A stretch of 32,000 bases of DNA, from NCBI RefSeq assembly GCF_041154365.1, contig NZ_AP035449.1. One strand, written 5' to 3'. The stretch is from Fidelibacter multiformis (GTDB taxonomy: Bacteria; Fidelibacterota; Fidelibacteria; Fidelibacterales; Fidelibacteraceae). This document shows positions 1,026 to 16,640 of the stretch, piece after piece. The notes beneath the pieces are model-generated. The model had not been told where the DNA came from, did no database searches, and worked only from the letters and a program-made list of their open reading frames with translations. Numbering within the stretch: the first letter of the stretch is position 1; every line of letters starts with the position of its first letter. Both the position numbers and the translations under genes were made by a program.

Positions 1026-4000
1026 TCATTTCATATACACAATCTTCCGGATCTGCACCTGCCGGTCAAAACGGGCCCTGACGATATAAAGACCCGTAGA
1101 GAGGTGTGAAGCGGTGTAATCAAAATGGTGTTCGCCGGCGGGATGATTCGAAAAAGCTATCCGGTCTACAATGCGGCCGGTGATATCCACAACTTCAAAC
1201 ACAAGATCCCCCGCATCCGGCAGGCTGTAGGTCAACCGGGTCACCGGATTGAAGGGATTGGGATAGGCGGATCCAAGTATAAAAACTTCGGGAAGGATCT
1301 CCTCTTCCTGTCCGGGAAGGGTCCGTTTCCGGATCACCACTTTCTCCGGATCTTCTCCCCAATCGATTCTGGCAATGCCGGTCAGTTCATCCTCCGGATA
1401 TTTGGTTTTCAGTTCTGTTAAATAATACTCCGCCTGAACACTATCCGCTAAATCCTTATCATAGAGATTGAACAGATCAAAAAGGGCCGTGGTTTCATGG
1501 ATGGTTTCCGGGTTTTCCGCAAGGATTTCACGGGAGAGGGCGATGGCCTGTTTCGTATCTTTCATCCGACGGTATTCGGACACTTTCCGGGATTTGATCA
1601 CGGCCCGGAGGGTCTTATCGTCGACACCGGTCAGGAGTTCATCCAGATACGTCAGCATATCCCGGGGTTTCTGTTCACGGCAGAGGCGTACGGACATGCT
1701 CAAGGCCCGGTAGGCATAAGTGGAGGCGGGATATAAGCGGATCAGGGTCTGAAAATCATCGAGTGCCCCGGTATAGTTCTTTTCCCACACGGCACTCATA
1801 GCGACTTCCCACAGGGCTTTGGCCGCTTCGTCGCCCGGTTTTTCTTCCGGATGGGATGCGATGACCGATTCAGGGCTGCTTTTACTCAGGGTGCTGCCGG
1901 AACCGGGATCGGATTGCAAAGGATATGTGGTGAGTACATCTCCGTAACAGGCAGATGCTGAAGGTTGACCCCACCAGCAACGTCTTGCATCGATGGATGA
2001 TGTGCCATCCGATGCGACGGCGGCATAATAGGTCCCCTGCCAGATAATGGAGTTTTTGCAATTTCCCCACACTTGTGGGATATGTCCACCCATAACAGGC
2101 GTTGAAGCATTGGATGCTAAAATAACACCCTCTGAAGATTCTCCGGATGACATATAATTAAAGCCCGTGTATGTATAATTTTCATACTGTCCAAACAGCG
2201 GATCGCTCCCGTTGTTTGCATACACTGCCCATAAAGCATCCGTGGTGCTGATCGTATTATAATACAGATCCGGTGATGATGAATACATTATAAAAGCATA
2301 ATTCCCGCTTCCGCCGGTAATCAAATTATTGTGCATTTCCGAATTACTGTTCACAAAATATAGACCGAATAACCCGGATTCCGTGATTGCATTTGATTCT
2401 ATTAAGGGGGACCCGTTGTAAACATACAGGCCAAAGGTTGAGGCATTGCTGATTGTATTATCAGAAATTTCCGAACCCGCCGGGACATTCAGACTCATGA
2501 TCCCATATCCGGAATTTGATAGTTCGTTGTTGGAAATAACGACAGACCCATTCGAACCTGAACAATAAATAGCATACGTCTCTATATCGGACAATGTATT
2601 CTCATATATGTATGGGGTCGATCCATTAGAACAGTAAATACCATTTTTACTGTTTGAGATTTCATTAAAGGTTATAACAGGTGTCCCATTCAATCCTGAA
2701 TTAATTGCCCTGCTTGAAATATTTGTCAGATGATTATAAAAAATATACGTTGAAGAATTCAGAGAGCTTATTCCGTAAGATGCATCAGATATGGTATTTG
2801 AACTGAGTACCAGGGCATCCTGGCCTGTTTTCCCTGAATGATCACGAATGGCTGTGGTTGCATGGGTTATAGTGCATCCGCTTAATGAGCCCGAACTGTT
2901 TTCCTGATAATATAGACCGCCCCAGGTTCCGGAAATACTTGTAAACGTTGCATTATTTCCTTCCAGGGTTGCACCCCCTGCTATCTCCAATGTTTTTCCC
3001 GATGGATATTTTAACAGGGCTCCATCCTGAGCCACCAGCTTTCTTCCACTCGTCAGGGTATACGTATCATTAAAAATAAATTCTCCGCGAAGGTAAAGTT
3101 CTGATCCGTTATTAAATGCATCATCAATTGTTGTATACAACCCCAGAACCGTTGACCCGGACATAAGACGGATATCCGGAGTAAAGCTTGCACCGGATTC
3201 GATAGCAAGTGACCCGGATCCTTTTTGAATGGTATGACTGTCTAACGTAATATCTGACCCGTTTCTAAATGTCAGTGTCACCCCCGGGGGAACGGTGAGA
3301 CTCACGGCAAGGGTGTGAGAACCATATACATCGATACTCTGGCCACTGGTGGCGGCTGACATGGCAGATGTGATTGTGGAATATATCCCTTTAATGGCAC
3401 TTCCCGTTATAAGCCGGGTATGGGAATTGGAGGAGTTGATGGTTGCGCCGGATTCGACGGTGATCGTTCCGCCGGTAGAAATTATTGAATACCCATTCAG
3501 AGTAATATTCGTACTATTGGATATAGTTAGAGTAATACCAGAAGGAACAATAATAATTCCTGTGATTGTGTGGGATCCGGACCATATTGCATTTGCTGGC
3601 AACGTGCCTTCCGACAACATGCCATTATCAATACCATCAAGAACTGTAGCACCTGTGTTATCCGGATCAAGCCAATCTCTTAGGCGAGAAGAAGAACTGC
3701 CCCCATAATTCCATGACATAGAAAATTTGCCATACCATTTAGTTCTATATTCACAAAAAGGAACATCTCCTGTTCCTCCTTGATTCTGACCTACAACTCT
3801 ATGGTCCTGATTAATTAATGGTGCTCCAGATGACCCCCTTTCTGTAGTTCCATCATCAAATGTAACTCTCCAATGAGAATTTTCTGGTGTTACGTCCCAA
3901 GAACTGGATATTGCTTGATCGTATTCAAAGGAAATTTTTTTGATATCACCACTTGGATGATGGATAACTACAGAAGATGTCGGTGGAGTATTAATATTAG

Positions 4001-4973
4001 ACCAACCGTTATAATATACATTGTAATCAGAAGGCGGTGTTTCATCAAGTATGAGTAATGCAAAATCTGATGCTATATTACTAGCTTTGAGAGATGCTCC
4101 AACAAGTGTTTGTGCAGTCGGCTCTTCAGGAGGATTGTTACAGGTGTTGCTTTCATAATTAAACCAAATAACCCAGGTGTCAATATCCCCGTCTAAACAG
4201 TGTTCGGCAGTTAAAAAATAGGGAGCATAATTTTCTTTAACATTGTTAAGTAAAGAGCCGGAACAAAGTCTGGTACCATCACCTAGGACAATCAAACCAA
4301 CCGATCGAACTTCATTCTGCCAGTCTTCAGCTTCCGGACAATGGACATTATTATTACAAGCTTCAGAATCACCATAACCGGTAATTTTATAAAAATGACT
4401 CTTATTAGCACCCTTAAAAAAATCACGGTAAGCATGAACAACTCTGGAAATACTAATTTCACCGGTTCGGATAACATTTGCGGGTTCATAATATTCAAGA
4501 ATAATTTCATCACCTCTAACTAATCCGGTAGCAAACTTACCATGCGCTTTATTATTTCGGGATGTAAAAGCACCAATAATCATACTTTTTTCATTATTAT
4601 ATAAAAAATATTTTGATCCTTCTGGCAACCAAAATTTATCATAAATCAAGTTTATTGAATATGCACCACGAGATATTATTTTTAAACGCCATAGTTTACT
4701 TCCATCGGGAAAATTTACCCACGTACCCGAGTTTTGCATATTATATGAAACATCAAATCCATAACCAAAACGATAAGGTTCAAATTCCGGCGCATATTCG
4801 TCCTCAAACAGAAGCATTTCCGTGTCAATTTCCATCATTTCTTTAACCTCGATGGATTCTGAAACTTGTCGGCTAAAAGAGTAAGGCTGTCCCCCTTCAC
4901 TTAATTGTGCATAACTATCTGAGTATGCACATACTAAATAAAATACAACAAACAAAAAAGCTTTCAATTTCAT
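1026..4973 (-). CDS. Exported multidomain S1 (trypsin-fold, lysyl-endopeptidase-like) serine protease with parallel beta-helix repeats, a TPR-like helical region and a T9SS C-terminal sorting domain
   Basis: 1315-aa ORF. Signal peptide MKLKAFLFVVFYLVCAYSDSYAQ. Triad-like motifs LTAEHC (His258), SDFALLIL (Asp303) and ERGSSGAP (Ser382). Residues ~455-960 are G/S/N/T-rich periodic segments (e.g. NNxISxNxxYGI) typical of right-handed beta-helix repeats. Residues ~1040-1200 are helical and TPR-like. The C-terminal ~80 aa (AYPNPFNPVTRLTYSLP...GLYIVRARF) match the T9SS type A CTD pattern. SD AAGGAAA lies 8 nt upstream of the ATG. Confidence 0.85.
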   Translation of the reverse strand: MKLKAFLFVVFYLVCAYSDSYAQLSEGGQPYSFSRQVSESIEVKEMMEIDTEMLLFEDEYAPEFEPYRFGYGFDVSYNMQNSGTWVNFPDGSKLWRLKIISRGAYSINLIYDKFWLPEGSKYFLYNNEKSMIIGAFTSRNNKAHGKFATGLVRGDEIILEYYEPANVIRTGEISISRVVHAYRDFFKGANKSHFYKITGYGDSEACNNNVHCPEAEDWQNEVRSVGLIVLGDGTRLCSGSLLNNVKENYAPYFLTAEHCLDGDIDTWVIWFNYESNTCNNPPEEPTAQTLVGASLKASNIASDFALLILDETPPSDYNVYYNGWSNINTPPTSSVVIHHPSGDIKKISFEYDQAISSSWDVTPENSHWRVTFDDGTTERGSSGAPLINQDHRVVGQNQGGTGDVPFCEYRTKWYGKFSMSWNYGGSSSSRLRDWLDPDNTGATVLDGIDNGMLSEGTLPANAIWSGSHTITGIIIVPSGITLTISNSTNITLNGYSIISTGGTITVESGATINSSNSHTRLITGSAIKGIYSTITSAMSAATSGQSIDVYGSHTLAVSLTVPPGVTLTFRNGSDITLDSHTIQKGSGSLAIESGASFTPDIRLMSGSTVLGLYTTIDDAFNNGSELYLRGEFIFNDTYTLTSGRKLVAQDGALLKYPSGKTLEIAGGATLEGNNATFTSISGTWGGLYYQENSSGSLSGCTITHATTAIRDHSGKTGQDALVLSSNTISDASYGISSLNSSTYIFYNHLTNISSRAINSGLNGTPVITFNEISNSKNGIYCSNGSTPYIYENTLSDIETYAIYCSGSNGSVVISNNELSNSGYGIMSLNVPAGSEISDNTISNASTFGLYVYNGSPLIESNAITESGLFGLYFVNSNSEMHNNLITGGSGNYAFIMYSSSPDLYYNTISTTDALWAVYANNGSDPLFGQYENYTYTGFNYMSSGESSEGVILASNASTPVMGGHIPQVWGNCKNSIIWQGTYYAAVASDGTSSIDARRCWWGQPSASACYGDVLTTYPLQSDPGSGSTLSKSSPESVIASHPEEKPGDEAAKALWEVAMSAVWEKNYTGALDDFQTLIRLYPASTYAYRALSMSVRLCREQKPRDMLTYLDELLTGVDDKTLRAVIKSRKVSEYRRMKDTKQAIALSREILAENPETIHETTALFDLFNLYDKDLADSVQAEYYLTELKTKYPEDELTGIARIDWGEDPEKVVIRKRTLPGQEEEILPEVFILGSAYPNPFNPVTRLTYSLPDAGDLVFEVVDITGRIVDRIAFSNHPAGEHHFDYTASHLSTGLYIVRARFDRQVQIRKIVYMK

Positions 4974-4999
4974 AATTACTTTTCCTTATCTTATACGTT

Positions 5000-5025
5000 C
5001 TTTCATTCTTTATAAGAATGGAAAG
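5000..5025 (-). other. Intergenic hairpin between the META-domain gene and the protease gene
   Basis: CTTTCATTCTT-tata-AGAATG(G)AAAG forms an 11-bp stem with one bulge. No U-tract follows on either strand, so it is not a canonical terminator. It may be a processing or stability element. Confidence 0.3.
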
Positions 5026-5038
5026 CTGAGACACAATA

Positions 5039-5467
5039 CTAATTAATAAAAAATATTAATCTGTAGTTATTTTCATAATAAATATATAAACAATCATTTT
5101 TTATTGCGTAATTATGAGCTTTACGAAGTGCGGAAAGATATTTATCACTTACGGATTGATCACCACTACAATTCTTTTCTGTTGTAACCAGTTGATCAAT
5201 TTTTAATGAATCACCGGAAAAAATGATATATTTTGCAAAGAAATCGTTACAGTCATTTTTACCTGAGATCGTGCTATCGTTATTAAAATGGATAGTATAA
5301 ATTTTATCCTTTGGTGGTTTGAGAATGTTGCCGTCATTATCAAATGATTTCAATGTCCATAGAGTATTTTGAAGACTTATTTCATTATCATTATTTTCAT
5401 CTGTTAAAATACAATTAGAAAATATTATTATAAAAACAAGACTAAATAATATCTTGAACTTTTTCAT
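5039..5467 (-). CDS. META-domain (HslJ-like) lipoprotein
   Basis: 142 aa. Signal peptide ending in the lipobox-like FSNC. The pattern W.L.....G......I...F......SG...CN.F...Y......L.I......T...C matches the META/HslJ-like fold family as I recall it. Very AT-rich codon usage. Confidence 0.7.
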   Translation of the reverse strand: MKKFKILFSLVFIIIFSNCILTDENNDNEISLQNTLWTLKSFDNDGNILKPPKDKIYTIHFNNDSTISGKNDCNDFFAKYIIFSGDSLKIDQLVTTEKNCSGDQSVSDKYLSALRKAHNYAIKNDCLYIYYENNYRLIFFIN

Positions 5468-5507
5468 CCTTATACCCCTTTTTTCTTTCTAATATAATTT
5501 CCCATTA

Positions 5508-6578
5508 CTATTCCACCAATTTTCCGTGTAAAACCAAGTCATATGGGCCAGGACATAGTATACTAAAAATTATATCTTTTTCTAAAATCAGAGGGTCACC
5601 AACAAAACTAATGTTTTCTGTTGGAAGCTTGTAGAGATATTCCATGTCTGTGCCATTATAGTGAACAATGCCGTCTTTCATGCAAATAAAAATATCTTTT
5701 TCATTTCTCCCGAAAATTGGTCTATAGAAATTATTCATATTTATGGAAATAAACTTTTTAAAATCATTACTTTTATAATAAAACACGTCATTACCAACAG
5801 TAAAATAAACCTTTCCATATATTGAGCTTATTCCAGCCCAGGAAATTATGCTTTCTTTATTGGAATAGATTTGCTGTAGTTCATTATCTACTACCTGATA
5901 AAATTCCACATCGCCGTCACCGGTCTCATAATTGATCCCGTATGAAAATACATACACCTTGTCATTCTCTGCTCTAATCCTCAAAAACTGTGAATTAAAA
6001 TCAGCCCGGGCCATTTCCCGCCAGTTCGTGCCGTCATAATGCAAGACAAACCCTCGCCAACACTCATTTGTTCCATCAAAAAAACTGATAACACCACAGG
6101 CATAAACATCGTTTGGTGAGGTTCCCCACATATCATAAATATTAATAGAATAGTAATCCTCTTCGATACTATACACATAGTTTTGTTTCCATTCCGCACC
6201 GTCATAATGCCAGATCCCTGCTCCATGCTCAAGCCAGCCTGCACCACCCCCCATCCATACATCATCCGCACTGAAACCAAACAGCGTAAATCCGGAACAC
6301 CAGATTGTTTCATTGGTGTACGTCGTCCACTCTGTGCCGTCATAGTGCAGCAGCCGGTCATACTGGGTACCGCCACCGCCAACCGCCCATACGTCATCAG
6401 GTGAAGCACCCCATACCGAACTGATATAATTCATGGGCATATCCAGCGTATCCAATGTCCATACATAGTTCCGTTTGCCCGGTTCCGGCTCAGGTTCAAA
6501 TTCCGAAGGATTATCTTCACAGGAACAAAGAGCCAATAGTGTTATCATACTTACTATCAGACATGTTTTCCGGATCAT
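5508..6578 (-). CDS. Lipoprotein with beta-propeller-like repeats, function unknown
   Basis: The ORF is open to 6611. The ATG at 6578 has SD GAGG 6 nt upstream and yields MIRKTCLIVSMITLLALCSCED, a lipoprotein signal with lipobox LALC. The ATG at 6611 has no SD. Six or so repeats of the type DV(W/Y)xxGxxG...(L/W)HYDG(T/A)xW suggest blades of a propeller. Confidence 0.7.
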   Translation of the reverse strand: MIRKTCLIVSMITLLALCSCEDNPSEFEPEPEPGKRNYVWTLDTLDMPMNYISSVWGASPDDVWAVGGGGTQYDRLLHYDGTEWTTYTNETIWCSGFTLFGFSADDVWMGGGAGWLEHGAGIWHYDGAEWKQNYVYSIEEDYYSINIYDMWGTSPNDVYACGVISFFDGTNECWRGFVLHYDGTNWREMARADFNSQFLRIRAENDKVYVFSYGINYETGDGDVEFYQVVDNELQQIYSNKESIISWAGISSIYGKVYFTVGNDVFYYKSNDFKKFISINMNNFYRPIFGRNEKDIFICMKDGIVHYNGTDMEYLYKLPTENISFVGDPLILEKDIIFSILCPGPYDLVLHGKLVE

Positions 6579-6793
6579 GCTTGCCTCATCTGTTTTTTCG
6601 AATTGCACCATTAGGGTGAAAAGTCTGGAATATTTTCATTCTCTTGGTTAAAAGATTGAAATCAGGTAATAAATTTTTACTTTTTCTGCAATTGTTAAAT
6701 ATATTGTTACATTGGCACAAATAATTACACATTAAAATAACTATTTTTGATTTTTGGCTCATATTACCAACACTTTTTACGAACTTACTGCAT

Positions 6794-6848: not shown

Positions 6849-6897
6849 GCAGTCGGCAGTGGACAGTCGACAGTCGACAGTCGACAGTTGGCAGTGA
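6849..6897 (+). repeat. CAGTNNN-family heptamer array, 7 units
   Basis: The units are gcagtcg gcagtgg acagtcg acagtcg acagtcg acagttg gcagtga. Confidence 0.9.
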
Positions 6898-6948
6898 CGA
6901 GGAGATTGGAGGGATTGATTTGATTGAATAGATTGATTGGATTGCTTG

Positions 6949-7032
6949 CCCCGTGAAATGAGCGCAGCGTATTTCACAGGGGATTGCCTGCCCCGTGAAA
7001 AGGGATCCGGTTTACCGGGATATTTCACGGGG
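6949..7032. repeat. Two adjacent CCCCGTGAAA(T)...(A)TTTCAC(A)GGGG hairpins, the second nested
   Basis: Hairpin a: CCCCGTGAAAT (6949-6959), loop gagcgcagcgt, ATTTCACAGGGG (6971-6982). A copy is at 16189-16222. Hairpin b: CCCCGTGAAA (6991-7000), inner CCGG-ttta-CCGG, TTTCACGGGG (7023-7032). A copy is at 147-188. Confidence 0.9.
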
Positions 7033-7096
7033 GATTCGATTGAATAGATTGATTGGATTGGGGGATTGGATGATTGGCACTTCGCTGAGCTCAGTG

Positions 7097-7420
7097 TTCA
7101 AACGCCTTCGGCGATCAAGAATTCAAGCGGCACTTCGTGCCGTTCAATTGCTTCACTTTGTTCAGCATTCAAGCACTGCTTCGCAGTGTTCAAAAAAGAA
7201 TTCCAGTCACCCATTGAAATCCGCATATCTGGAATTGAACACCGAACGAAGTGAGGTGCTTGAACCCCATGAAATGGGGGTTGAACGCCGTCAGGCGTTG
7301 GAATACCGCACAGCGGTTATTGAACACCGAACATTGTGAGGTGCTTGAACACCACGAAGTGGTGATTGAAAGCCGCGTAGCGGCGTTTAATAAATCAAGC
7401 GGCACTTCGTACCGTTCAAT
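7097..7420. repeat. Array of at least 11 short hairpins (mostly 4-6 bp stems with 3-nt loops) separated by a conserved TTCAA (left arm) or TTGAA (right arm) linker
   Basis: Left arm. CGCC-TTC-GGCG (7103-7113). CGGCAC-TTC-GTGCCG (7128-7142). CACTGC-TTC-GCAGTG (7174-7188). Right arm. CACCgaAC-GAA-GTgaGGTG (7240-7258). CCCCAT-GAA-ATGGGG (7265-7279). AACGCC-gtca-GGCGTT (7284-7299). ACCGC-aca-GCGGT (7305-7317). CACCgaAC-att-GTgaGGTG (7325-7343). CACCAC-GAA-GTGGTG (7350-7364). GCCGC-gta-GCGGC (7372-7384). Then a degenerate copy of the second hairpin at 7400-7414. Linker orientation flips near the GAATTC at 7198-7203. Confidence 0.85.
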
Positions 7421-7473
7421 TGCTTCGCTGCACTCAGCATCTCCGCCCTCTCCATAAAAAATCACTCTCAGCA

Positions 7474-7523
7474 TCTCCGCGCCCACTGCGGGAGGAAAAA
7501 GTCTCCGCGCCCTCTGCGGGAGG
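7474..7523 (-). repeat. Two CTCCGCG...GCGGGAGG hairpin modules (same family as 950-1024), each followed on the minus strand by a T-run
   Basis: tctccgcgcccactgcgggagg (7474-7495) followed by aaaaa. tctccgcgccctctgcgggagg (7502-7523). On the minus strand these read hairpin-CTTTTT and hairpin...GATTTTTTAT, which is terminator-like, yet no minus-strand gene ends here. Confidence 0.6.
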
Positions 7524-7526
7524 ATG

Positions 7527-7561
7527 TCGACTGCCCACTGACGACTGATGACTGACGACTG
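7527..7561 (-). repeat. Inverted CAGTNNN heptamer array, 5 units
   Basis: The plus strand reads tcgactg cccactg acgactg atgactg acgactg. The reverse complement gives CAGTCGT CAGTCAT CAGTCGT CAGTGGG CAGTCGA. Confidence 0.9.
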
Positions 7562-7642
7562 ATTAAGTTTACATAAAATCATTGTGTATCCCAAAAGCCT
7601 GTCATAAATTTTATTCCTAAACATAAAGAGACGAGGCAAAAC

Positions 7643-8206
7643 GTGGCATCAACAGCAGATTTCAGAAACGGGATGGTCATTGTATACAATGGCGCCCTGT
7701 GTAAAATTGTAGAGTTTCAACACAGCAAAATGGGTCGCGGCGGTGCCGTGATCCGGACCAAGCTGAAAAATATTATTACAGGACAAGTCCTGGAAAACAC
7801 ATTCCGCTCCGGCGAAAAGGTGGAAGAAGCCCGGGTTGAAGCCCGGGAAATGGAGTACCTGTATAATGACGGGACCTTCTATTACGTGATGGATCACGAA
7901 ACCTTTGAACAAATCCCCCTTTCGGCTGATATGCTGGGAGATGATGTGTACTATATGAAGGAAAACGCCTTTGTGAAGGTCCTCATGTATCAAAACAAAC
8001 CCATCGGCATCGAACTCCCCACGGCTGTTGTTCTGAAGATCACGGCCACTGAACCGGGCGTCCGGGGAAATACGGCCACCAATGTGACCAAACCGGCCAC
8101 CTGCGAAACGGGACTGGAAGTCCAGGTCCCGATTTTTATCAACGAAGGGGATCTGATAAAGGTGGATACCCGGGACGGTTCTTATCTGGGACGGGAAAGC
8201 AATTAA
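7643..8206 (+). CDS. efp: Translation elongation factor P
   Basis: 187 aa with a GTG start and SD GAGG 8 nt upstream. The N-terminus MASTADFRNGMVIVYNGALCKIVEFQHSKMGRGGAVIRTKLKN and the overall length are typical of EF-P. Confidence 0.95.
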   Translation: MASTADFRNGMVIVYNGALCKIVEFQHSKMGRGGAVIRTKLKNIITGQVLENTFRSGEKVEEARVEAREMEYLYNDGTFYYVMDHETFEQIPLSADMLGDDVYYMKENAFVKVLMYQNKPIGIELPTAVVLKITATEPGVRGNTATNVTKPATCETGLEVQVPIFINEGDLIKVDTRDGSYLGRESN

Positions 8207-15641: not shown

Positions 15642-15993
15642 GGGGGTGTACAGGTTTCGACGGGATAGACCGGTTTATGCGATAGCGTGCCGAGGTGTTC
15701 AGGATTCCTCGTGAATCAACCTGAAAACAATCGTAATTGCAGACAATTACGCTTACGCTGCTTAAACAACATTAGGTAGCCGTCCGCCCGGGTTTGTTCG
15801 TGGGCCCGGACCGGGCGCCAATAACACGGACTCGTTCCTGGTATTGTCTGGGTACTAAGAACTAAACACTTTCAGACTGGCTGCCGGTGGTTTGTTTTTT
15901 GTCCTCCCGGCAGTAAGACTCAACAAAAAACTGCGCACGGAGAAATCGTGTAAGTCGCTATTTCGGACCCGGGTTCGATTCCCGGCACCTCCA
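15642..15993 (+). ncRNA. ssrA: Transfer-messenger RNA (tmRNA, SsrA)
   Basis: The 5' end reads GGGGGTGTACAGGTTTCGACGGG and the 3' end GGACCCGGGTTCGATTCCCGGCACCTCCA. The acceptor stem GGGGGUG/CACCUCC has a G3:U wobble. The T-arm is GGGTTCGATTCCC. The tag reading frame GCA GAC AAT TAC GCT TAC GCT GCT TAA (15739-15765) encodes ...ADNYAYAA-stop. CCA is not encoded. Confidence 0.95.
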
Positions 15994-16023
15994 CTTGTAA
16001 ATGTTTAGACGTTGTTTTGTTGG

Positions 16024-16438
16024 CAGTCGGCAGTTGACAGTTGTCAGTCATCAGTCGTCAGTCGGCAGTCGGCAGTCGGCAGTGGTGAGGGGATTGGGGA
16101 GATTGATTCGATTGGATAGATAGATTTGATTGAAACACCAGGAGCGACGCTAACTTCCAACTTCCAACTTCCAGATTTTGATTGCCTGCCCCGTGAAATG
16201 AGCGCAGCGTATTTCACAGGTGATTGATTGGATTGGGGGATTGGCACTTCGCTGCACGCAGTGTTATAGGATTCAAGCGGCACTTCGTGCCTTTCAATTG
16301 CTTCGCTGCGCTCAGCATTCAATCGCCTTCGGCGTTCAATGATTCCAGGCGTCGACATTTGAACGCTGCGCAGCAGCGTTTGAAAACCGCGAAGCGGCTA
16401 TTGAACCCATGAGCCCCTGAACCCATGAACCAACTATC
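16024..16438. repeat. Mosaic non-coding repeat region C (same module families as A and B), starting 30 nt after ssrA
   Basis: Order of modules. CAGTNNN x9 (16024-16086). GATTG nonamers x5 (16092-16136). ttgaaacaccaggagcgacgctaa plus NAACTTC x3 (16151-16171). CCCCGTGAAAT hairpin (16189-16222). A GATTG tract. A triloop hairpin array with TTCAA linkers: GGCAC-TTC-GTGCC (16279-16291) and CGCC-TTC-GGCG (16324-16334). The linkers then switch to TTGAA after GTCGAC (16351-16356): AACGCTGC-gca-GCAGCGTT (16362-16380) and CCGC-GAA-GCGG (16387-16397). Confidence 0.9.
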
Positions 16439-16640
16439 AGGAGCAAAGCGACGCTAAATTCCAACTTCCACCTTCTAACTTCTTAAATAGAATTGGCGAT
16501 TCATTTGATTTAGCACCAGGATTATAAGAGAGATGGAATATATGATTTCGCTTAGGTAACGCCCCCCACCCCGGGGGTAAAATACAGCGAAATGCGACTT
16601 AAAGCAAGATAATATTGATAATAATATATATGATGAATAA
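16439..16640 (+). repeat. Conserved composite module, copy 3 (full length: heptamers, TTCATT-17-TATAAG, mini-ORF, C/G hairpin, AT-rich tail)
   Basis: Aligns to 296-441 (9 differences) and to 612-735. TATAAG is at 16523-16528. The mini-ORF ATG GAA TAT ATG ATT TCG CTT AGG TAA spans 16533-16559. The module ends 5 nt from the stop of the convergent response regulator gene. Confidence 0.8.

Follow-up and report, generated by a model that had tools for sequence, protein, structure and literature searches.

Inverted arrays of TTGAA-headed hairpins in Fidelibacter multiformis, a candidate REP/BIME-like mosaic repeat of Fidelibacterota

The 32,000-nt stretch of Fidelibacter multiformis contig NZ_AP035449.1 analysed here (the window) carries an array of short hairpins upstream of efp, at 7077-7440, and a second array 3' of the transfer-messenger RNA (tmRNA) gene, at 16272-16435. 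The efp-side array is real and non-random, and the repeat family that it represents is new for Fidelibacterota, with an unusual unit that joins a five-nucleotide head to a DNA mini-hairpin. On balance we lean towards regarding it as one copy of a dispersed, hypervariable, mosaic non-coding repeat family in Fidelibacterota that works like repetitive extragenic palindromic (REP) sequences and bacterial interspersed mosaic elements (BIMEs), with hairpins that act in single strand, likely in DNA. We describe it as working like REP/BIME, and not as a member, because its head differs, its units do not alternate in orientation and no REP-associated tyrosine transposase (RAYT) was found in the 867 kb of loci compared.

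An initial annotation, made from the letters of the sequence, had noted the linkers, hairpin units of about 17-25 nt and a strand flip at GAATTC (7198-7203), all of which are present; the array that it placed at 7097-7420 is there too, with limits that lie further out on both sides. It had also correctly read the same layout, with the switch at GTCGAC, in the second array. Both arrays sit inside larger mosaic blocks, of which the window holds three, built from the same kit: block A (~60-730), block B around the efp-side array and block C (16022-16640). Together these make up 6.3% of the window, and two of them hold hairpin arrays.

Unit grammar and anatomy of the array

Each unit consists of TTGAA, a hairpin and one further nucleotide, and its length is quantised at 17, 21 or 25 nt. 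The 17-nt unit has a 4-bp stem and a 3-nt loop, the 21-nt unit a 6-bp stem and a 3-nt loop, and the 25-nt unit 4 bp, a tandem G·A/A·G mismatch, 2 bp and a 3-nt loop. On the strand shown, the head reads TTCAA at 7097, 7122, 7143, 7168 and 7189 (spacings 25, 21, 25, 21) and TTGAA at 7214, 7235, 7260, 7281, 7320, 7345 and 7366 (spacings 21, 25, 21, 39, 25, 21). The strand flips at a short centre, with the X-arm on one side and the Y-arm on the other; both arms read TTGAA outward, and unit lengths run 21-25-21-25 outward from the centre in both. The parts of the array are as follows.

7077-7193, minus: X-arm, five TTGAA-plus-hairpin units
7173-7193, minus: X-arm unit CACTGC-GAA-GCAGTG, 21 nt
7148-7172, minus: X-arm unit TGCT-GA-AC-AAA-GT-GA-AGCA, 25 nt, tandem G·A
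7127-7147, minus: X-arm unit CGGCAC-GAA-GTGCCG, 21 nt
7102-7126, minus: X-arm unit TTCTTGAT-CGCC-GAA-GGCG, 25 nt
7077-7101, minus: X-arm unit CACT-GA-GC-TCA-GC-GA-AGTG, 25 nt, tandem G·A
7194-7213: flip centre AAAAGAATTCCAGTCACCCA, with GAATTC at 7198-7203
7214-7388, plus: Y-arm, eight units
from 7214, plus: Y-arm unit ATCCGC-ATA-TCTGGA, 21 nt, degenerate
from 7235, plus: Y-arm unit CACC-GA-AC-GAA-GT-GA-GGTG, 25 nt
from 7260, plus: Y-arm unit CCCCAT-GAA-ATGGGG, 21 nt
from 7281, plus: Y-arm unit CGCC-GTCA-GGCG
from 7298, plus: Y-arm unit ACCGC-ACA-GCGGT
from 7320, plus: Y-arm unit with ATT loop, 25 nt
from 7345, plus: Y-arm unit CACCAC-GAA-GTGGTG, 21 nt
from 7366, plus: Y-arm unit AGCCGC-GTA-GCGGCG
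7389-7440, minus: start of a second, truncated X-arm (7109-7168 and 7381-7440 are 83% identical)
7394-7419, minus: second-X-arm unit CGGTAC-GAA-GTGCCG
7420-7440, minus: second-X-arm unit TGCT-GA-GT-GCA-GC-GA-AGCA

The Y-arm contains an internal duplication of 85 nt (7216-7290 against 7301-7375, 79% identity). The two tandem-G·A units singled out by the initial annotation, 7240-7258 with a GAA loop and 7325-7343 with an ATT loop, are as described, and 7077-7101 and 7148-7172 on the minus strand are also units of this kind.

The window holds eight sites where a perfect hairpin of 4 bp or more with a 3-nt loop follows TTGAA directly; 300 dinucleotide shuffles gave 0.80 ± 0.80 such sites and never more than 3. 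Six of the eight lie within the two arrays. Folded as DNA, the right arm has a z-score of -3.5, the left arm of -2.3 and the whole array of -8.6; folded as RNA, the whole array reaches z = -6.65. Folded as a single sequence, 7075-7442 takes a minimum-energy structure in which the arms pair with each other (DNA, -86.3 kcal/mol, z = -8.6). When eight element copies were folded together with RNAalifold, the local hairpins were retained, with compensated changes in Y2, Y3 and X2, and the long-range arm-arm pairs showed no double changes.

Covariation was measured in sets of distinct units in which chains were retained only at >= 75% mean pairing, a threshold that biases the sets slightly toward pairing. 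Within the 58 distinct 21-nt units, 88% of cells are paired and covariation is 0.62, against 0.26 after shuffling (0/500 reach the observed value) and 0.22 or less in slid controls. The 32 distinct 25-nt units gave 95% paired cells and again a covariation of 0.62, against 0.30 shuffled (0/500) and 0.17 or less in slid controls. Moreover, the raw, unfiltered metagenome scan shows the same bimodality of stem pairing as the filtered sets. The stems covary, and geometry and linker are maintained, in line with the initial suggestion that structure is kept over sequence. The accompanying remark that stems are not shared holds between neighbouring units; between copies, each unit type is shared.

Among 96 distinct units the loop is GNA in 67 and NNA in 85, with GAA (34) the commonest form, followed by GCA (19) and GTA (14), and GGA absent (0). 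Thus the first and third loop bases are fixed as G and A and the middle base is free, and the GAA motif noted initially is the most frequent version of a wider consensus, GNA closed by C-G, a closing pair present in 83 of the 96. On the TTGAA strand a TNC loop was seen in none (0/96). G·T and A·C mismatches are about equally frequent in the distinct units (19 vs 17). The tandem G·A is kept also in units outside the selection made by the search pattern (GAGC...GCGA cores). In eight aligned elements, identity to the window copy is 94% in the heads, 98% in the G·A positions, 80% in the stems, 77% in the loops and 68% in the rest. Of the 14 occurrences of GCGNAGC in the window, 11 fall within the three blocks, where the motif is ~55-fold denser than outside. 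Since loops are GNA and never TNC and the G·A pairs are kept, the unit is polar, with the purine-rich strand as the constrained one; and because the arms are inverted, that strand points away from the centre, 5' to 3', in either arm.

Dispersed copies and their turnover

Among species-representative genomes, a scan with the best-conserved unit found a single genome, a Neomarinimicrobiota metagenome-assembled genome (MAG), with 11 hits on nine contigs; its match to the window is confined to the repeats. In metagenomes, 117 stretches matched a pattern in which the outer stem was unconstrained. Some 35 of them have fully complementary outer stems and sit in arrays, with six different outer stems (CACC/GGTG, GATC/GATC, CATC/GATG, CGCC/GGCG, TATC/GATA and TGCT/AGCA); the remainder are chance hits with two or fewer of the four outer pairs. 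As a negative control, the tandem-G·A pattern gave 13 hits in the IMG/VR viral contigs, all coding and again with two or fewer of four outer pairs. The specific unit had no hit in IMG/VR, and plasmids and phages gave no match with blastn in distant mode.

Unit types and their order recur at ~19 other places, in the Neomarinimicrobiota MAG and in ~25 metagenome contigs, and these copies fall in two or three subtypes. The X-arm order is CACTGC (21), TGCT-GA... (25), CGGCAC (21), TTTTTGAT-CGCC-GAA-GGCG (25) and CACT-GA... (25), and the Y-arm order is ATCCGC-ATA (21), GATC- or CACC-GA... (25), CGCTGC (21) and AGCCGC (21), followed by (TGAACCCN)n. Twelve TTCAA-centre-TTGAA flips were counted among the compared loci (labelled L007, L151 and so on below), with centres of 13-35 nt. 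All true arrays lie in non-coding DNA, between divergent (5), convergent (4) or co-directional (6) genes, with no preferred orientation.

The arrays turn over rapidly in content. At orthologous spacers whose flanks are 81-97% identical, all copies have arrays but with different unit sets, and the differences fall at TTCAA/TTGAA boundaries. One locus, seen in six samples with an identical neighbouring protein, carries a 42-nt (25+17) repeat in one, two or three copies on one side, and a whole 257-nt X-centre-Y element, single or in up to three tandem copies, on the other. Among the compared copies, one shortened form is a deletion between TGCTTCGC direct repeats. Strain differences therefore consist of whole units, two-unit blocks or whole elements, that is, minisatellite behaviour on top of a dispersed family. 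Higher-order amplification is seen in L035 (540-1129), where three tandem super-units of ~190 nt each contain five or six hairpin units and a short inverted segment.

At efp itself, the short-read contigs with identical EF-P all end inside block B and differ in heptamer number and module content. The block is present upstream of efp in one relative (88% EF-P identity) and absent in two (88% and 81%). As the block-less relatives have a different upstream gene, no precise empty site or duplication can be read there. In one of them (L135, 1-330; GCA_028716785.1), the C-terminal part of an integrase/transposase-like open reading frame (ORF) lies upstream of efp, and this locus was thus rearranged independently.

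A REP/BIME-like reading and its alternatives

Of the two explanations offered initially, a REP/BIME-like DNA element fits better, as a likeness and short of membership: the repeat is dispersed, extragenic, mosaic and hypervariable, and combines a head with a hairpin. The hairpins would matter in single-stranded nucleic acid, with DNA as the likelier form because cGNAg hairpins are extraordinarily stable as DNA, the mismatches show no RNA-type wobble bias and no promoter points into the window copy. The d(GCGAAGC) hairpin melts at 76.5 °C and r(GCGAAAGC) at 39 °C, and natural d(GCGNAGC) sites include single-stranded DNA priming sites (the phage G4 priming origin, ssiA) and the hairpin promoters of phage N4 (PMC13037366). 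Arrays grow locally by slippage or unequal exchange, and the repeated heads are where such slippage or unequal recombination would enlarge and shrink them. Their spread would go either through a trans-acting factor that reads head and hairpin, as RAYT reads GTAG and the REP hairpin, or through recombination between the many copies. No benefit to the neighbouring efp or tmRNA is implied.

Several points weigh against this reading. With two Y1-transposase sequences as probes, phmmer found no mobilising enzyme among 4,623 ORFs of the compared loci (867 kb, for the most part unrelated DNA, with the source genome outside this search space); neither a target-site duplication nor a precise empty site could be defined. 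The preference for DNA over RNA depends on published motif stabilities. Nearest-neighbour parameters do not separate the strands for 21-nt units, a comparison that is uninformative because the parameter sets lack a GNA triloop bonus, and for 25-nt units the RNA parameters favour the GNA strand (-3.25 vs -1.89 kcal/mol). Some copies must be transcribed, since they are located inside operons. Units are in tandem here, as against the alternating orientation normal for REP clusters. Finally, much of the apparent covariation between copies may stem from the swapping of whole units and not from stepwise compensation.

A further reading ties the arrays to a gene. In the six-sample locus (L151-L156), a 127-aa gene for a four-helix-bundle protein of the PF05635/TIGR02436 family lies at the centre, between the X and Y arms. 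An 86%-identical gene in another MAG, at the unrelated locus L157, is preceded by TTCAA units and followed by TTGAA units, heptamers and 8-mers; the X-arm, upstream region and gene of L157 and of the L151 type align at 80%, and their flanking genes are unrelated. The PF05635 genes are found at the following positions, and also in L158-L165.

L151, 4001-4384: PF05635 gene
L157, 2501-2881: PF05635 gene
L007, 1258-1617: PF05635 gene
L077, 1629-2099: PF05635 gene

The L007 and L077 paralogues lie between inverted 8-mer or GATTG modules, and homologues from Salinivirgaceae, Lentimicrobium, Bacteroidales, Rhodohalobacter and a Thermodesulfobacteriota MAG all have flanks of 8-mer repeats that share a core (CTTGAACC, TTTGAATC, CTTAAACC, CTGRAACC). 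These 8-mers are mostly forward downstream and reverse upstream of the gene, and the cassettes sit co-directionally within operons. It is conceivable, if somewhat doubtful, that the arrays are the arms of an undescribed cassette tied to four-helix-bundle (S23p/PF05635, Avd-like) genes, in which inverted copies of a polar TTGAAC-type repeat stand on both sides of the gene. In Bacteroidota, Rhodohalobacter and Thermodesulfobacteriota this repeat may be a simple 8-mer, and in Fidelibacterota it may have been elaborated to head plus cGNAg units; a dedicated factor, possibly the four-helix-bundle protein, would read it single-stranded, and gene-less copies, including both in the window, may be non-autonomous derivatives. 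In the literature we found no link between the PF05635 family and tandem repeats. Both window arrays lack a PF05635 gene, and since the sample is also small (nine loci), the link is a lead and not an explanation.

An element that acts after transcription, as a protein sponge, a stabiliser of mRNA 3' ends, a terminator, an insulator or a set of RNase III-cleaved stems like those of 23S rRNA intervening sequences, is an unlikely account of the arrays. The hairpins do fold well as RNA, and with RNA parameters the GNA strand is the more stable one for the tandem-G·A units. Some arrays lie 13-60 nt from coding ends between co-directional genes and so are probably co-transcribed, and where a copy bears the PF05635 gene, the Y-arm flanks that gene on its 3' side, in GNA orientation. 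Inverted heptamer arrays bound block B, and RNase III excises S23p-bearing intervening sequences via their inverted ends (PMC4990558). However, the window array is flanked by two outward-pointing promoters (the leftward one at 6821-6794 and the efp promoter region), and no promoter-like site was predicted inside 6850-7550. Orientation relative to genes shows no preference, the wobble-type G·T mismatches equal A·C, the arm-arm pairing lacks compensatory support, no Rfam family matches, and the mini-hairpin is far less stable as RNA than as DNA. The CsrB/RsmZ-like sponge put forward in the initial annotation is unsupported on the same grounds and, in particular, because the GGA motif of CsrA-type binding is missing; moreover, relatives with 81-88% EF-P identity lack the block upstream of efp.

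Similarly improbable is a neutral local minisatellite with no constraint of its own, whose hairpins would persist only through the youth of the copies and the repair of imperfect palindromes by template switching during replication. The change of copy number within one species, typical of variable number tandem repeats, the 85-nt duplication inside the window copy, the tandem super-units of L035, the turnover of content at orthologous sites and the symmetry of mismatch types would all suit such a satellite. Template-switch correction should, however, remove the tandem G·A, which instead is kept in five or more outer-stem lineages without being corrected to perfect pairs, also in units that were not pattern-selected (e.g. 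TGCT-GAGC...GCGA-AGCA and CATC-GAGC...GCGA-GATG). Furthermore, G and A are held at loop positions one and three with the middle free, the head is counted as the most conserved part, and genomes with no more than 81-89% identity in the flanking genes have unit types and order in common.

BIMEs bind gyrase and IHF, and TTGAA heads about two helical turns apart might likewise be sites for a nucleoid, topoisomerase or recombinase protein on double-stranded DNA, with the palindromes incidental or extruded as cruciforms that absorb supercoils between divergent promoters; the nearly invariant head, the 21-bp spacing, the five arrays between divergent genes and the position of the window copy exactly between two outward promoters accord with this, but it is very improbable, given that spacings alternating between 21 and 25, and sometimes 17 nt, put the heads out of helical phase, that the asymmetric loop (GNA, never TNC) and the conserved G·A are meaningful only in a folded single strand, and that no candidate protein was found.

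If the REP/BIME-like reading is true, Fidelibacterota, of which to our knowledge only one species has been cultured, would join the few lineages known to have REP-like repeats. The grammar is unusually legible, with an invariant 5-nt head, 17/21/25-nt classes, cGNAg loops and tandem G·A, and this is the first case we found of an extraordinarily stable DNA mini-hairpin as the repeated unit of a chromosomal element, so that the arrays offer a natural system for asking what mini-hairpins do in vivo. Since the blocks occupy ~6% of the window and break short-read assemblies, MAG quality is affected for the phylum; array copy number varies and could be used to tell strains apart. The PF05635 link, if true, would make the function of a very large orphan family testable, supplying a ligand for it and a general genomic context for S23p-type intervening sequences.

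Surroundings of the arrays and comparison with known systems

The window has a GC content of 46.2%, and cultured F. multiformis one of 45.6% (PMC11652737); a type IX secretion system sorting domain and EF-P homologues place the window in Marinimicrobia/Fidelibacterota. The efp-side array lies in a non-coding gap of ~1 kb, inside which block B spans 713 nt (6850-7562). Its order is (CAGTCGA)n heptamers, GATTG-type 9-mers, two long hairpins, GATTG repeats, the array, TCTCCGCGCCC...GCGGGAGGA hairpins and inverted heptamers.

5508-6611, minus: gene for a 367-aa protein with no Pfam match, one flank of the gap
6821-6794, minus: perfect TTGACA-16-TATAAT promoter of the 367-aa gene, firing leftward, immediately outside block B
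6850-6895, plus: left border of block B, (CAGTCGA)n heptamers (Tandem Repeats Finder period 7, 5.6 copies)
6899-7077, plus: GATTG-type 9-mers around two long hairpins
6949-6981: long hairpin 1, CCCCGTGAAAT...ATTTCACAGGGG, with a GCGCAGC mini-hairpin within the loop
6991-7032: long hairpin 2, CCCCGTGAAA...TTTCACGGGG
7441-7524, plus: TCTCCGCGCCC...GCGGGAGGA hairpin modules (7474-7496 and 7502-7524)
7525-7562, plus: right border of block B, inverted heptamers (CGACTGA)n
7643-8206: efp, the other flank of the gap, followed by accB, accC, gcvH and gcvP

The perfect promoter suggests that sigma-70-type consensus promoters are in use in the source organism. The heptamers at 6850-6895 are the inverted partner of 7525-7561 (37 nt, 81% complementary). 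The (CGACTGA/TGACTGA)n run stops 80 nt upstream of efp, and the conserved efp upstream region begins at 7563 (TTAAGTTTACATAAA), exactly at the right edge of block B. Module content at 7441-7524 varies among contigs with identical EF-P, and those of 6899-7077 are found again in blocks A and C as well as at MAG loci. In L018, an orthologue of the 367-aa gene is likewise preceded by a repeat block. The stretch 4000-6600, which holds this gene and that of a META-domain protein (5039-5467), is low in GC (29-35% against the window mean of 46%) and may have been acquired horizontally.

Block C begins 26 nt past the 3' end of the tmRNA gene, and its array subtype is found also in L014 and L015.

15642-15996: tmRNA gene (Rfam 184.8 bits; tag ADNYAYAA)
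16272-16435: second array, block C, 3' of tmRNA
16272-16339, minus: X'-arm, 21-, 25- and 17-nt units; TTCAA at 16272, 16293, 16318 and 16335
16340-16358: centre of the second array, TGATTCCAGGCGTCGACAT, flipping at GTCGAC
16359-16400, plus: Y'-arm, two 21-nt units, then (TGAACCCN)n 8-mers; TTGAA at 16359, 16380 and 16401

As (TGAACCCN)n continues the Y-arm directly and has the same TTGAAC head, hairpin units and 8-mers look like two forms of one repeat. These 8-mers were seen at 16401-16431 of the window, in L015 (280-430), in L007 (1000-1110 and 1670-1940) and in L014 (~960-1100).

Other modules of the kit recur in the blocks. Heptamer arrays (CAGTCGA, GGCAGTC, CGCGTCA, GACTTTC) occur at 71-112, 6850-6895, 7525-7562 and 16022-16083 of the window, in L077 (~5330-5400) and in L018, often as inverted pairs at block borders and with copy numbers that differ between strains. 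Long hairpins with TGCCCCGTGAAA...TTTCACGGGG stems of 10-11 bp, at 6947-7034, 145-190 and 16187-16222, have as loop either a GCGCAGC mini-hairpin or a CCGG-TTTA-CCGG hairpin; six of this type were counted in the window, against 0.27 expected. A conserved module of ~110 nt (…TATATGATTTCGNTTAGGTNNCGCCCCCCACCCCGGGGGTAAAATACANCGAAATGCGAC…GCAAGATAATATTGTTA) lies at 380-450, 615-700 and 16525-16610, adjoins unique DNA at the outer block edges and is present in L008, L015, L028, L032, L054, L063, L109, L123 and L129; it has no Rfam match and may mark the end of the element or be a small RNA. Modules with AGGAGCGNAGCGACGCTAACTTCC, which contain GCGNAGC and are followed by AACTTCC heptamers, were found at 236-340, 16140-16175 and 16436-16480, and an GACAGGCCGCAGCCTGTC hairpin at 258-275 is another module of the kit.

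Among known systems, four were rejected on anatomy or context. CRISPR arrays do not fit because the shared part is a 5-nt head only, whereas the parts that vary are self-complementary and reappear at further loci. The RNA array of a type III toxin-antitoxin system does not suit the neighbours (efp, the 367-aa protein, tmRNA and a response regulator), integron attC sites differ in anatomy, and K-turns would require a 3-nt bulge that is missing. Rfam searches at gathering thresholds gave the tmRNA only, and at E <= 10 blocks B and C matched only chance-level eukaryotic small nucleolar RNA, microRNA and long non-coding RNA families. Miniature inverted-repeat transposable elements are defined by terminal inverted repeats and target-site duplications, with filled and empty sites; the arms here are inverted in geometry, and at efp the block-less relatives, with their different upstream gene, give no readable duplication or precise empty site. 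CsrB/RsmZ RNAs are similar in that many short hairpins stand in a row with short single-stranded linkers, but they differ from this dispersed multi-copy repeat, which occurs in both orientations, has no framing promoter or terminator and shows GGA loops in 0/96 units.

The TAACTGA heptamers of Beggiatoaceae, Cyanobacteria and Bacteroidetes are intergenic, often just upstream of start codons, and patchy across phyla (PMC4679880). They resemble the block-border heptamers, not the hairpin array, in being intergenic tandem heptamers with an ACTGA core; the heptamer sequence is another one, and the pairs here are inverted. The 23S rRNA intervening sequence of Coxiella is selfish, with an S23p ORF, inverted ends, excision by RNase III and strain-variable GACAGAT heptamers beside the ORF (PMC4990558). 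Some copies of the present element likewise hold a PF05635/TIGR02436 gene at the centre between inverted arms, and GACAGTC-type heptamers end the blocks. In contrast, no compared locus lies in an rRNA gene, most copies are gene-less, and the arms are arrays of short units and not a simple stem.

The d(GCGNAGC) mini-hairpin of Hirao and co-workers is matched by most units in its C-G closing pair and its GNA loop with a sheared G·A, but it is a structural motif, not an element family. In the papers found, no arrays are described in which tens of these mini-hairpins share a head and are dispersed through a bacterial chromosome, and searches of the literature on Marinimicrobia/Fidelibacter gave no account of a TTGAA-hairpin repeat. 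A separate paper reportedly deals with closing-pair effects in d(GCA) mini-hairpins.

With the properties of REPINs as the basis of comparison (PMC3116915), the arms here are not true complements, and pairing between them lacks covariation support, though the single window copy folds arm on arm. The GT(A/G)G head of REPs is replaced by TTGAA (94% column identity) in an analogous position. Units stand in tandem within each arm with one flip per element, whereas REP units alternate; they are also shorter (hairpins of 10-19 nt) and far more diverse (10 or more types), and their loops are of one particular kind, the cGNAg mini-hairpin. On the other hand, REP/BIME and the present arrays have in common short, extragenic, imperfect palindromes in many dispersed and strain-variable copies, predicted to fold in single-stranded DNA or mRNA; several unit types that differ in their stems; mosaic clusters with specific linkers and inverted arrangements; and a short conserved head beside the hairpin, GTAG in REPs and TTGAA in Fidelibacterota.

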